A stretch of DNA of 64,000 nucleotides from Escherichia phage phiE142: the sequence record NC_055709.1; one strand, 5' to 3'. The notes beneath the pieces were generated by a model. That model did not search any database and was not told where the DNA came from. It saw only the letters and a list, made by a program, of their open reading frames with translations. The position numbers and the translations under genes are program-made. How positions within the stretch are numbered: the stretch's first letter is position 1; each line of letters opens with the position of its first letter. This document shows, one piece after another, positions 13,807-30,634 of the stretch.

Positions 13807-14388
13807 TTATAACAACCCTGTCAAATCATTCCAATGCTTCCGGCATAATGACACGTATCTATCGGTATCACCAATTTCAATTTGACTGCCATCTGTAATT
13901 GGAAGTCCGTCTTCCGTGACTCTAGCTACCATTGTGGCCTTTTTACCACAATGACAGACACCTTTAAGTTCAACAAGCTTATCGGCAATAGCCATTAATG
14001 CTTGAGAACCTTCAAATAGATTACCTTTAAAATCTGTTCGTAGTCCGTATGCCATTACCGGCACATTGTATACGTCAACAATACGACTAAGTTGATACAC
14101 CTTTTCAGTAGTTAAGAACTGAGCTTCGTCAACAAATACACAGTGAATATCCTTTTGTGCTGCAGCCCATTTATAAAATTCAAAGATATCCATGTCTTTT
14201 GTAATTATATTGGCATCCTGACGAATACCAATACGAGAGACTATTTCACCTTTTGAATCGCGAGTATCAATAGCCGGTTTAAGAACTAATACACCCATGC
14301 CACGTTCTTTATAGTTATGTGCGGCAGTAAGTAATGAAGCAGACTTACCAGCGTTCATAGCGGCATAGGTAAAAATTAAACTAGCCAT
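13807..14388 (-). CDS. tk: thymidine kinase
   Basis: 193 aa; P-loop NAGKSASLL and Zn-binding CHCGKKA motif. Confidence 0.9.
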   Translation of the reverse strand: MASLIFTYAAMNAGKSASLLTAAHNYKERGMGVLVLKPAIDTRDSKGEIVSRIGIRQDANIITKDMDIFEFYKWAAAQKDIHCVFVDEAQFLTTEKVYQLSRIVDVYNVPVMAYGLRTDFKGNLFEGSQALMAIADKLVELKGVCHCGKKATMVARVTEDGLPITDGSQIEIGDTDRYVSLCRKHWNDLTGLL

Positions 14389-14397
14389 AAGAGTCCC

Positions 14398-14580
14398 TTA
14401 TAGTGAATTCACGTAGTCAATGAGTTCTTGTTCTTTCCTGTCAAATGATTCCATCAATGCTTGATATTCTTCGTCTGTTAAAGGAGCATATTCATCGTAC
14501 GCATTGGTGGCTGCTTGCTCATCCAATAGGTCATGGATAAGTTCGAACAGTTTAGTTTTCTCTTCTTTAGTCAATTTCAT
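14398..14580 (-). CDS. hypothetical acidic small protein
   Basis: ORF only. Confidence 0.4.
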   Translation of the reverse strand: MKLTKEEKTKLFELIHDLLDEQAATNAYDEYAPLTDEEYQALMESFDRKEQELIDYVNSL

Positions 14581-14804
14581 TTAGGTTCACCTTCTTTAAC
14601 GAAATCTGGGTAAGGGTAAAATCCTGAGTAAAACCCTTCACCTTTATGATTGCTACAACCTTTGTTCGAACAGTAACACCAATAATCAAAATCACAAGCC
14701 ATTTCGTCATTGCATAAAGCAAAAACTACAGGCCATTCGCATTTTTCGCATTTAGCACCTGTAAGAATTTTTGTTTGGCTCATAACCATTTGACCTGCAT
14801 GCAA
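14577..14804 (-). CDS. hypothetical Cys-rich small protein
   Basis: multiple CxxC-like pairs. Confidence 0.4.
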   Translation of the reverse strand: MHAGQMVMSQTKILTGAKCEKCEWPVVFALCNDEMACDFDYWCYCSNKGCSNHKGEGFYSGFYPYPDFVKEGEPK

Positions 14805-15007
14805 TATTCTTCGACATGCTTTTTACGACCTTTCTTATCAATAAAGGTATATTCCATAAAGCGTCCATGATAACGACGTTCAACATCGTGAGGGGTGTTA
14901 ATAGGACACTTAGTCTGACGAATTTCTTCCCATTCACGAATAATAACTGCTTTATTCTTTGGGTCATACGGGTGAGGATAATGCACATTCATAACAATGG
15001 TTCCCAA
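14780..15007 (-). CDS. hypothetical protein (75 aa)
   Basis: preferred over the overlapping same-strand ORF 14752..14988 on composition. Confidence 0.4.
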   Translation of the reverse strand: MGTIVMNVHYPHPYDPKNKAVIIREWEEIRQTKCPINTPHDVERRYHGRFMEYTFIDKKGRKKHVEEYCMQVKWL

Positions 15008-15456
15008 TCAACAATCACAATTTCTAGTTTAGTGGAATATGTATCAAGAATTTCTTCAATGATATCCCAGTTTCCACCACCTATACCTGCTCCAATTCTT
15101 GGCATGTAAATCACAGGCTTTGTTATCTTATTTTTTCCGAATTCATTTAATTCTATTATACAATTCATTAAAGCAGAGTACTCAAAATTAGGTCCCGGCT
15201 CAAACTGAGTATAAAGATTAAAGCAATAAGCTTTATGAGTCTTAAAATATTTTTCATAAACCGAATAAGTCCCAAGTTTAGACTCGTCTCCGAATTCAGT
15301 TTGAAGTTTATCGGCTTCCAGAATTTTTGGATAAGCCTTTGCCAATTGACCTGCTACACCGGCGCCCATTGTATGAAAACAATTGCACCCATGAGCAATA
15401 TTATTACCTTTAGAAAACAGGGCGACAATATCGCCCTTGATATAGTTTTTAATCAC
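14989..15456 (-). CDS. macro-domain-like protein (155 aa)
   Basis: KGDIVALFSKGNNIAHGCNCFHTMGAGVAGQ and MPRIGAGIGGGNW resemble the two glycine-rich ADP-ribose-binding loops of macro domains. Confidence 0.55.
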   Translation of the reverse strand: MIKNYIKGDIVALFSKGNNIAHGCNCFHTMGAGVAGQLAKAYPKILEADKLQTEFGDESKLGTYSVYEKYFKTHKAYCFNLYTQFEPGPNFEYSALMNCIIELNEFGKNKITKPVIYMPRIGAGIGGGNWDIIEEILDTYSTKLEIVIVDWEPLL

Positions 15457-15796
15457 TTGCTACAAGTCCTCTAGTATAAGAGTCAACTAGACGGTCCACC
15501 ATAGAATTGCATGCTGCCTTATCTTTAGGTTCCGCCACCGAGCATTCTAATATTTGCCATTTTTTATGATATCGTTTAATTAAGGTAGACGCCTTGAACC
15601 TACTAGACGCCCCATCTTTTTCTCCGTCTTTATACGCATATAACAATTTTTGTGAAAAATCTACTTTACACTCTTGACTTTTACCACAGTAATCAGACGC
15701 CGTTCTGTTTGTATACTCCGTTACATCAGTATATGTAGTATTAGCAAGAGCGTTAAATGAAACCAAGCTAACTATTAAAGCCAACATTTTGGTCAT
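15449..15796 (-). CDS. secreted Cys-containing protein (115 aa)
   Basis: Sec-type signal peptide MTKMLALIVSLVSFNALA plus 4 Cys. Confidence 0.5.
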   Translation of the reverse strand: MTKMLALIVSLVSFNALANTTYTDVTEYTNRTASDYCGKSQECKVDFSQKLLYAYKDGEKDGASSRFKASTLIKRYHKKWQILECSVAEPKDKAACNSMVDRLVDSYTRGLVASD

Positions 15797-16335
15797 TCTT
15801 TTATTTCCAGTAGTTTATTTGATTTAAGGTAATTAGCCTTTTCTAGGACTTCAGAAGCATATTTACTTCCAGCACTTGTCTTCCATCCCGCATTATATGA
15901 GGATATAGCTTTTCTTATATCCCCGTTATGTATATTTAACCAATAAGAAAATTCGATATAAGCCCATCTGGCTGAATTAGACCGCTTAGATAGCATTTTC
16001 TTAATTTGGGCATCAGTCATATTATAACCAAGCTGGTTAATTCTTGCCCTCATTGTTGGTAGATAGTTTTGGAACATTCCATACGCATGGTGACCTTTCT
16101 TATCTTTAAGATTAATACCGGCAGATGATTCTTGCCATAGTATTGCGGCCATTATGTATCCAAGTCCTTTCTTATGCATATTTTCATGCGTTTTAAATTT
16201 TCCGTCCTTAGAAAACTGTTCCCCAAACTGATAAGCATAATTTAAGTTATCGAGTTGGACATTACTAAAAGTATGCTCGGAGCTATGTGCTGATAATGAA
16301 AGAGCAAATAGACCAGCGAGTAGTGCTTTTCTCAT
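15793..16335 (-). CDS. periplasmic SLT-domain lytic transglycosylase (180 aa)
   Basis: signal peptide MRKALLAGLFALSLSAHS; SLT motifs WQESSAG, YGMFQ, SYNAGW. Confidence 0.7.
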   Translation of the reverse strand: MRKALLAGLFALSLSAHSSEHTFSNVQLDNLNYAYQFGEQFSKDGKFKTHENMHKKGLGYIMAAILWQESSAGINLKDKKGHHAYGMFQNYLPTMRARINQLGYNMTDAQIKKMLSKRSNSARWAYIEFSYWLNIHNGDIRKAISSYNAGWKTSAGSKYASEVLEKANYLKSNKLLEIKE

Positions 16336-16343
16336 GTTTACCT

Positions 16344-16802
16344 CTAGATTTTAATCACTGCTTTAGAAGCTTTTCCTGGTAGTCGTTTACTGTTAATAAT
16401 AGCCATTCTACATTGAAGAGTCTTCATTTTGAATGCCGGATTTTCACGACAAACTGTAAGGCCTAACCAAAGATTTCCATCAGTTATTTCTAAACGGCCT
16501 GGGCGGTATTCGACACCTTCGACAAAATCTTCGTCAACATCTGGACGTGCAGGCATTGATAAAAATTCTGCAACTTCTTTAACGTGATTTTTTACTTTAC
16601 GAAATAATTCAAAAACGTAATTCTCATCTATTTCTCTCTGGATGGCACGATCTAAGAGATGTTGAGAATACTTGATATGAAAGCCTGGTAGTCCAAGAGA
16701 CTCTGCAGCATCTTTTATACCGGCATTGATTTGACGAAACTCCGTTTCAAAGATTCGACGGAGTTTATTGCGACGGATAAAAACTTCCGAATTGATAGTC
16801 AT
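16344..16802 (-). CDS. regB: sequence-specific endoribonuclease RegB
   Basis: 152 aa; MTINSEVFIRRNKLRR...YSQHLLDRAIQREIDE...GRLEITDGNLWLG matches T4 RegB. Confidence 0.85.
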   Translation of the reverse strand: MTINSEVFIRRNKLRRIFETEFRQINAGIKDAAESLGLPGFHIKYSQHLLDRAIQREIDENYVFELFRKVKNHVKEVAEFLSMPARPDVDEDFVEGVEYRPGRLEITDGNLWLGLTVCRENPAFKMKTLQCRMAIINSKRLPGKASKAVIKI

Positions 16803-16863: not shown

Positions 16864-17079
16864 TTATTGATAAAATGGAGTTAAAGCCCAAGATTCTTTA
16901 GATACTATATTAGCGAAATGCCTCATCTCTTCGATTTGGCGACGACGCTGGTCAGCATAATCTTCTTCGCCTTCTTCCTTACAATCTTCAAGGTCTTCTT
17001 CAAGATACTTTAAGTATTCACTACAAATTTTGTTAACCTTTTCTTGGAAGTCCAACAACCCAGTAATAGTAGAAGCCAT
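16864..17079 (-). CDS. hypothetical acidic protein (71 aa), vs.3 position
   Basis: ORF only. Confidence 0.4.
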   Translation of the reverse strand: MASTITGLLDFQEKVNKICSEYLKYLEEDLEDCKEEGEEDYADQRRRQIEEMRHFANIVSKESWALTPFYQ

Positions 17080-17345
17080 TAGTATTTTTCCTCAGGACGA
17101 AATACTGCACGACAGGCCCACATGCTGGCTTCTTTTAGATGTTGCTTAGCGTACTTAAGAGCCTGCACTGCATCCATATCTTCTTTGGTTTGATGCTCTG
17201 TTTCATTTTCTTTCAAGATATAGGCTTCTTCAATCAGAGCATCAAACATCAATCCAAGACGGACTTCTGCATCTTTAATAGCGTTCACTTTACCTATTTT
17301 ATCGTCGGTATGTGGCTTGTAGCCTTTAATATCTTCAATCGACAT
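17079..17345 (-). CDS. hypothetical protein at the T4 vs.4 position (possible Acb2-like sponge)
   Basis: 88 aa from internal ATG (MSIEDIKG...); assignment by gene order only. Confidence 0.35.
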   Translation of the reverse strand: MSIEDIKGYKPHTDDKIGKVNAIKDAEVRLGLMFDALIEEAYILKENETEHQTKEDMDAVQALKYAKQHLKEASMWACRAVFRPEEKY

Positions 17346-21132: not shown

Positions 21133-21591
21133 TTATAGGATGGTAGTGAGCACCTTATATAATGATTTGCCCATTACATATTCCCATTGAGAAGGTTTAA
21201 TTAAAGCGAATGCATCAAATTCAGGAATCTGTCGTCCGTCTGGGAATGTATGATAGGAATTACAAACACTGTTTCTGAATTGCTCGTGCTCTACAGGGAT
21301 GGTATATTGGAATAGATGAATATTCTTATTGTCTGAGTAATGATGTTCGCCTAGGTCTTTCAGGAAGGCAGGGTCATATTGTGTAAACCCAGTTTCTTCT
21401 TCGCATTCACGAATAGCGGCTTCAATAGGAGATTCACCTGGCTCGACACGGCCTTTAGGAATATCCCACCGATGAGCTAATGCACCTTTAGGACGAGAAC
21501 CAGTTACACGGCCCATGAATAACTCTTTATCTTTTGTCATGAAGATAATACCGGCTGATAGTTCTTTCACTTTATTTTTCTTACTCATCAT
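21133..21591 (-). CDS. nudE: Nudix hydrolase
   Basis: Nudix box GRVEPGESPIEAAIRECEEETGF. Confidence 0.85.
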   Translation of the reverse strand: MMSKKNKVKELSAGIIFMTKDKELFMGRVTGSRPKGALAHRWDIPKGRVEPGESPIEAAIRECEEETGFTQYDPAFLKDLGEHHYSDNKNIHLFQYTIPVEHEQFRNSVCNSYHTFPDGRQIPEFDAFALIKPSQWEYVMGKSLYKVLTTIL

Positions 21592-29802: not shown

Positions 29803-29853
29803 AAGCCTTGCGGCAGCCTTGTCGGGGTTCCACCTGCTAAGGCAAGTGTTTGT

Positions 29854-29944
29854 ACGAAACGCCGGGATTCGAACCCGGTTATTAAGCAGTTGACGCTACT
29901 CAATATTTTTAAAGGCCATATCTCGACCATATCCGAACGTTCCG
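29854..29944 (-). tRNA. tRNA-like element (about 91 nt, anticodon not resolved)
   Basis: canonical T-arm CCGGGTTCGAATCCCGG and 7-bp acceptor pairing CGGAACG/CGTTTCG; no encoded CCA; remaining arms do not fold cleanly by eye. Confidence 0.4.
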
Positions 29945-30114
29945 TCAAAAACGCTACTCGGCTTACGGCAAAGATATTTCCTCGAATCGATAATTCTGTG
30001 CGCCGTTTCTGCTGTGATGTAAGGGGATATTAACGAATCATAAAGATTTATTAAGACCAGTCCTTACTCAGGGAACATCAGTCCGACGACTTGCCGGTAG
30101 CGACCCGGCTTCTC

Positions 30115-30477: not shown

Positions 30478-30554
<77 letters not shown>

Positions 30555-30560
30555 AATATA

Positions 30561-30634
30561 TGACCCAGACCAGATTCGAACTGGTAACCTTTCCCTTATG
30601 AGGGGACTGCTGCTAACCGTTGAGCTACAGGGCC
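30561..30634 (-). tRNA. tRNA with CAU anticodon (Ile2 or Met)
   Basis: T-arm ACCAG-TTCGAAT-CTGGT, anticodon loop CUCAUAA; acceptor has one U-U mismatch and the D-arm is irregular. Confidence 0.6.

Follow-up and report, generated by a model that had tools for sequence, protein, structure and literature searches.

The stretch of DNA analysed here (the window) comprises 64,000 nucleotides of Escherichia phage phiE142 (NC_055709.1). It contains, between vs and a tk.3-like ORF, an ORF that starts with GTG, ends with TGA and encodes a protein of 155 amino acids (Table 1). Its limits in the ORF list are exactly those claimed in the first-pass annotation, the coding strand being the minus strand, and a CDS with identical coordinates is annotated in the related record OL960576. 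On the other hand, the earlier placement of the ORF downstream of tk does not hold for the direction of transcription: every gene of the region is encoded on the minus strand, regB being followed by vs.1, vs, the ORF and, farther on, tk, so that the ORF lies upstream of tk. The GTG used as start is also annotated as such in JK45 and SA79RD, while the T4 counterpart is an ATG; the GAGGA element found at the end of vs is present at the corresponding place upstream of T4 tk.4. Three small ORFs (14398-14992, minus strand), which chain by overlap with the 155-codon gene, fill the space up to tk and match DUF7202, Phage_zn_bind and DUF7438, all of them Pfam families confined to phages. Over the 3.5 kb around the ORF, Escherichia phages Av-05 and phiC120 share 99.5% identity with the window, and many other T-even-type phages 96-98%; several of the latter are classed as Mosigvirus (the RB69-like genus). 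A scan for sigma-70 promoters around the gene returned 11 sites, fewer than the 14.2 obtained with shuffled sequence, and is therefore uninformative on its transcription.

Table 1. Genes and sequence elements at the vs–tk locus of phiE142 (positions of the window).
Feature	Position	Strand	Basis or remark
regB	16344-16802	-	region gene order
vs.1	15793-16335	-	region gene order
vs	15449-15796	-	directly upstream of the predicted tk.4/adfM ortholog
Shine-Dalgarno-like GAGGA, 10 nt 5' of the GTG, inside the end of vs	15467..15471	-	sequence
GTG start overlapping the vs stop codon by 8 nt (GTGATTAA)	15449..15456	-	sequence
Predicted tk.4/adfM ortholog, CDS (155 aa, single macro domain)	14989..15456	-	ORF list
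GC-rich hairpin (8 bp stem, 3-nt loop) followed by a U-run, codons 7-13	15419..15437	-	terminator-like match in scan
Glycine-rich loop 1, residues 22-37, HGCNCFHTMGAGVAGQ, includes N25	15346..15393	-	BLAST against PhiKZ gp104
N-L-Y-T-Q motif, residues 80-84	15205..15219	-	hmmalign and hhalign to DarG NFPTK
Glycine-rich loop 2, residues 119-130, PRIGAGIGGGNW	15067..15102	-	alignments
ATGA overlap of the tk.4/adfM ortholog TGA with the ATG of the next ORF (tk.3-like, DUF7202)	14989..14992	-	sequence
tk.3-like ORF	14780-14992	-	DUF7202 match, E=1.3e-37
tk	13807-14388	-	three small ORFs between the tk.4/adfM ortholog and tk

The beginning of the coding region carries a hairpin with the sequence AGGGCGA-TAT-TGTCGCCCT and a folding energy of about -13 kcal/mol. 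Over these 23 nt, T4, JK45 and SA79RD show no difference from the window, not even at synonymous sites, although the gene-wide synonymous divergence is about 60%. The element might serve as an attenuator, as a site of RNA processing or in translational control between vs and tk.4.

The first-pass annotation had likened the encoded protein to ADP-ribose-binding macro domains on account of two glycine-rich strings. Both are present, at residues 22-37 and 119-130, and the resemblance is borne out by profile, fold and both loops. The Pfam Macro model (PF01661) matches with 28.6 bits (curated cut-off 22; E=1.5e-6) and is covered from position 2 to 117 of 118; the solved structures matched by sequence are BT1257 (E=4.5e-11), yeast Poa1p, SCO6735, TARG1 and DarG. 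AlphaFold2 run on the single sequence gave an unusable model (pLDDT 36), which was remedied by an alignment of 92 homologs (pLDDT 96.1, pTM 0.91). The fold predicted in this way is the three-layer alpha/beta/alpha macro fold, and the assignment, which the first-pass annotation had made dependent on the outcome of structure prediction, stands. A Foldseek search of the PDB returned solely macrodomains or macro-fold-like designed proteins, with TARG1, Poa1p and DarG at the top (TM 0.7-0.8), and these nearest structural neighbours of the model place the protein structurally in the TARG1/ALC1-like class. Overall, the ORF is predicted to encode a stand-alone macrodomain of 155 amino acids that binds ADP-ribose. 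The comparison with its T4 counterpart (pS 0.61, synonymous sites being nearly saturated; pN 0.083; dN/dS 0.07) shows a real gene under purifying selection, and homologs are present in 2,797 of the 50,697 phage records searched by tblastn.

By sequence and synteny, the gene is assigned as the ortholog of T4 tk.4/adfM. T4 Tk.4 is 85% identical to the window protein, with 155/155 amino acids aligned without gaps (E=5e-105, 23 substitutions), and its gene (NC_000866, 60922-61389) lies between vs and tk.3 in the same flanking order as in the window. The two genes have the same overlapping layout and their products share every family-invariant residue. They differ in the start, which is ATG with a 4-nt vs overlap in T4 and GTG with an 8-nt overlap in phiE142, and in loop 2, where the window protein has the family consensus GIGGGNW and T4 has GIGKGNW; furthermore, phiE142, unlike T4, is RB69-like, with Mosigvirus relatives.

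The function of the T4 gene was recently approached by genetics. In the HIDEN-SEQ preprint of November 2025, a T4 transposon library propagated on a host expressing DarTG2 had tk.4 as its sole significant hit, a clean tk.4 knockout rendered T4 DarTG2-sensitive, and the gene was named adfM (anti-DarT factor Macrodomain); the DarTG2 phenotype of T4 depends on slow growth (30°C, M9), and enzymatic removal of ADP-ribose from DNA by AdfM was inferred by the authors, to whom it "seems likely" (bioRxiv 10.1101/2025.11.20.689424). A DarTG2 role of tk.4 is consistent with earlier work on the NADAR enzyme AdfN, which counters DarTG1: T2 and T4 mutants devoid of it stay DarTG2-resistant (PMC11825919). 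In infected cells, the Tk.4 protein of T2 can be detected. Searching for other published functions of tk.4, we found only the binding of T2 tk.4 mRNA to the sRNA ArcZ, which leaves the protein level unaffected (bioRxiv 10.64898/2026.06.19.733364). The involvement in DarTG defence suggested by the first-pass annotation thus agrees with the published genetics of an ortholog that is 85% identical, the DarTG2 requirement having been shown only in T4; the reading as a macro domain that possibly counters DarTG is correct, and is already known biology. The other two roles proposed in the first-pass annotation, reversal of the Alt/ModA/ModB marks of the phage itself and breakdown of Thoeris signals, found no support in our analysis.

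Considering the macro fold, the orthology, the purifying selection and the phenotype of the T4 knockout on DarTG2 hosts, the gene probably protects the phage from DarTG2, most likely by hydrolysing the ADP-ribose-thymine bond. This role in phiE142 itself is an inference, and so is the enzymatic mode of action. The gene would be transcribed with the early/middle vs-tk gene block. DarT2 places ADP-ribose on thymidines of single-stranded phage DNA, at TNTC motifs, and blocks replication; the macrodomain would then bind the DNA-attached ADP-ribose in the pocket formed by the two glycine loops and hydrolyse the glycosidic bond between ribose and thymine, leaving clean DNA on which replication may continue.

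The pocket was examined by aligning the protein with its relatives. Its two loops, N..GxG[IV]A (residues 25-35) and GxGxxGG (residues 122-128), align with those of DarG, TARG1, Poa1p and BT1257 and are near-invariant among 260 relatives. In the 92-homolog alignment P119, I121, G122 and G124 do not vary. Across the 260 family proteins, Q84, Y82 and D49 are each found in 260/260, C26, N80 and G33 in 259/260, N25 in 258/260 and H22 in 253/260. We consider N25, H22, Q84, Y82 and D49 as candidate catalytic or substrate-positioning residues, for the sole reason that they are near-invariant. Q84 occupies the position of the catalytic lysine (DarG K80 / TARG1 K84), both with hmmalign to the family profile and with hhalign (98.8% probability), and the position of the catalytic D125 of TARG1 corresponds to G126, which is A or G family-wide. 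The TARG1 sequence used in these alignments is presumably the right one, its K84 and D125 numbering agreeing with the published catalytic positions. The window protein thus lacks the lysine of the 'TK' motif of TARG1 and DarG, in whose place 260/260 relatives have Q; BT1257 likewise has Q at this position, and the Poa1p sequence has no lysine there in the printed alignment. The signature of DarG is TK-G-G and mutation of K80 inactivates it, while TARG1 uses K84 and D125 (PMC8120803). Since an invariant Q84 replaces the lysine essential to DarG, the chemistry of the window protein, if it is an enzyme, must differ from the DarG lysine mechanism.

A missing catalytic lysine could also mean that the protein is a non-catalytic binder, which masks ADP-ribosylated DNA or blocks DarT2 directly in the manner of the small inhibitors AdfA and AdfB; indeed, related phages have direct DarT inhibitors. 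We regard this as highly improbable. A pocket that is near-invariant in 260 diverse proteins, including those found in bacterial housekeeping contexts, is more readily expected of an enzyme than of a phage-specific inhibitor, the single domain of 155 amino acids is devoid of the C-terminal region by which DarG binds DarT, and Poa1p and SCO6735 are active enzymes despite being lysine-less.

Poa1p (6LFQ-6LFU) and human TARG1/OARD1 (4J5Q-S) belong to the same structural class as the window protein and have the H-x-C-N-C / G-x-G loop 1 in common with it. The residues H23, S30 and F152 of Poa1p, which were probed in its structures, align with H22 (conserved in 253/260), T29 and G126. Poa1p is the closest solved relative of known activity, and its being an ADP-ribose-1''-phosphate phosphatase, acting on a soluble phosphate ester unlike the DNA substrate proposed here, weighs against hydrolysis of the ADP-ribose-thymine bond. 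The protein might instead hydrolyse soluble ADP-ribose derivatives, such as ADP-ribose-1''-phosphate, O-acetyl-ADP-ribose or ADP-ribose-based immune signals or toxins, with a DarTG2 phenotype that would be indirect or due to a secondary activity. This explanation is unlikely, given that a DarTG2-specific phenotype is the only one on record for the ortholog and that the known product of DarTG2 is thymidine-ADP-ribosylated DNA. To our knowledge, DarTG2 immunity has no small-molecule step. Moreover, NADAR, a fusion partner of this family (see below), is the fold of the DNA-base de-ADP-ribosylase AdfN.

The TARG1/ALC1-like structural tier also leads to proteins as possible substrates. The window protein could remove mono-ADP-ribose from acidic residues, as TARG1 and SCO6735 do, and in this way tune or erase marks set by host enzymes or by the Alt/ModA/ModB transferases of the phage. 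T4-type phages ADP-ribosylate many host proteins; however, the Alt and Mod enzymes modify arginine, and we know of no macrodomain that cleaves arginine-ADP-ribose. Such arginine marks are removed by DraG/ARH-type enzymes (PMC8120803). As for acidic residues, TARG1 acts on protein-Glu-ADPr through K84 and D125, neither of which is present in the window protein, but SCO6735, which is without the catalytic Lys/Asp pair, removes Glu-linked ADP-ribose in vitro (PMC8120803). In addition, tk.4 is not reported to be essential on plain E. coli K-12, its depletion being specific to the DarTG2 host (bioRxiv 10.1101/2025.11.20.689424), and we consider a role in protein de-ADP-ribosylation very unlikely.

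The name AdfM was also given to PhiKZ gp104 (Cell Rep 2026), which removes DarT2-made ADP-ribose from a TNTC oligonucleotide in vitro and whose N23A mutant has weaker activity (PMC13309987). Both proteins are stand-alone phage macrodomains directed against DarTG2, in the case of phiE142 by prediction, and share the loop-1 asparagine, N23..GAG of gp104 (translated from the sequence printed in PMC13309987) being aligned by BLAST with N25..GAG of the window protein. However, this alignment extends over only 23 residues around loop 1. Furthermore, gp104 is DarG-type (E=9e-25 to Mtb DarG), with FPTK and the catalytic lysine where the window protein has YTQ, and scores 132.9 bits with the PADLOC DarG model as compared to 32.6 bits for the window protein. 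The two are judged not to be orthologs. Similarly, the NCBIfam DarG equivalog NF048014 gives the window protein 30.8 bits against a cut-off of 250, over profile positions 4-146 of 338. The DarG macrodomains of known structure (T. aquaticus 5M31/5M3E, M. tuberculosis 5M3I) are about 20% identical to the window protein, which differs from DarG in the invariant Q replacing K80 and in having no C-terminal DarT-binding domain. No darT is found next to the window gene, whose neighbours are vs and the DUF7202 ORF. The weak matches to both DarG models, the invariant Q at the K80 position and the G/A at that of D125 count against cleavage of thymidine-linked ADP-ribose by the window protein.

The spread of the family was then considered. 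An exhaustive profile search collected 18,446 clusters with E<=1e-3, of which 9,071 remained when the threshold was lowered to 1e-10 and 1,256 when it was lowered to 1e-30; in addition, 382 relatives were found by scanning one genome per bacterial species. At the best 80 of these 382 bacterial loci, Q84, Y82, N80 and D49, which lie outside the pattern used for the bacterial search, are each conserved in 80/80. No DarT2 homolog was detected within 5 kb of these 80 loci by single-sequence phmmer with P. aeruginosa DarT2 as query, a search that could miss very divergent DarTs. At most 9/80 loci share a neighbour family, and the recurrent neighbours are housekeeping genes, namely those of RpoC, SecA, IleS, M23 and M16 peptidases, HAD and alpha/beta hydrolases, together with a semialdehyde dehydrogenase (ArgC by eye). 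The lack of DarT2 matches in this single-sequence search and the housekeeping surroundings likewise speak against a substrate made by DarT2.

We also considered that the protein might be an orphan antitoxin derived from DarG. This was rejected on account of the weak match to the DarG models, the non-conservation of the lysine, and the bacterial loci, where single-sequence phmmer found no DarT2 near the 80 members and no neighbour is common to more than 9/80. The T4-type protein derives from a widespread family of stand-alone macrodomains, and not from a DarG antitoxin. A T4-type protein without the DarG lysine, coming from a widespread stand-alone bacterial family, makes both its mechanism and the natural substrate of the bacterial members worth attention. 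BT1257 of Bacteroides thetaiotaomicron (PDB 2FG1/2AFC), which has IGQ instead of YTQ, is a bacterial structural-genomics deposit entered as a conserved hypothetical protein, and no described function of it was found in the literature.

Some members of the family are fused to other domains. A protein of 472 amino acids (P0184), encoded on virus-like metagenomic contigs (L005, 6268-7686; L006, 8001-9419), consists of a YTQ-type macrodomain joined to NADAR and DUF4326, and another representative has the macrodomain fused to DUF4326 alone. DUF4326 is a predicted ribose-phosphate phosphatase (PMC9503650). In P0184, the AdfM and AdfN folds, those of the two anti-DarT enzymes of T4, are united with this predicted phosphatase in a single protein. 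The fusions are consistent both with the removal of ADP-ribose from DNA and with the processing of soluble ADP-ribose derivatives. Tentatively, and with some doubt, we propose that the 'NxYTQ' family as a whole, with at least 1,256 clusters at E<=1e-30 in phages and bacteria, removes ADP-ribose from DNA thymidine without the lysine essential to DarG. If so, a second chemistry would have been recruited, independently, to the same counter-defence, and many uncharacterised bacterial members of the family, BT1257 for instance, would be housekeeping enzymes repairing ADP-ribosylated DNA or nucleic acids, not antitoxins.

The names in use for these genes are heterogeneous. The T4 RefSeq product of tk.4 is "phosphatase; contains A1pp phosphatase motif", PHROG 335 is labelled "phosphatase", and several GenBank phage records have "macro domain protein"; in a 2026 preprint the T2 gene is misnamed 'putative thymidine kinase' (bioRxiv 10.64898/2026.06.19.733364). 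In the record of Shigella phage JK45 (3794-4336), the vs.1 homolog is mislabelled 'endoribonuclease RegB', the true regB being the next gene. As for AdfM, two phage macrodomains that are not orthologous received this name independently, T4 Tk.4, with a YTQ motif and genetic evidence only, and PhiKZ gp104, which is DarG-like, has a PTK motif and is backed by biochemical evidence. Carrying the biochemistry of gp104 over to T4-type genes by name is unsafe. We found no discussion in the literature of this name clash, of the Lys-to-Gln difference or of the non-DarG origin. The window gene can be annotated as adfM/tk.4 (macrodomain, anti-DarTG2), in place of "hypothetical protein" or "phosphatase".

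Three further observations concern other parts of the window. The ORF at 17079-17345 (minus strand) encodes a homolog of T4 Vs.4 (66% identity) that matches Pfam Acb2_Tad1_hairpin (E=6e-18) and is accordingly annotated here as the predicted anti-CBASS sponge Acb2 (acb2/vs.4). It precedes the macrodomain gene by only 1.6 kb, which suggests a block with at least two counter-defence genes. The ORF at 21133-21591, also on the minus strand, encodes a NUDIX hydrolase (Pfam NUDIX, E=1.3e-15) and is named NudE in relatives. ADP-ribose is among the substrates of T4 NudE, and by analogy this enzyme could dispose of the product of the macrodomain. Finally, a 94-nt 'tRNA-Stop' (anticodon tta; 29852-29945, minus strand) called by ARAGORN is probably a false positive, with no Rfam tRNA match at E<=0.01, while ARAGORN and the Rfam tRNA model agree on the neighbouring tRNA-Arg(tct) (30478-30554) and tRNA-Met (30561-30634).
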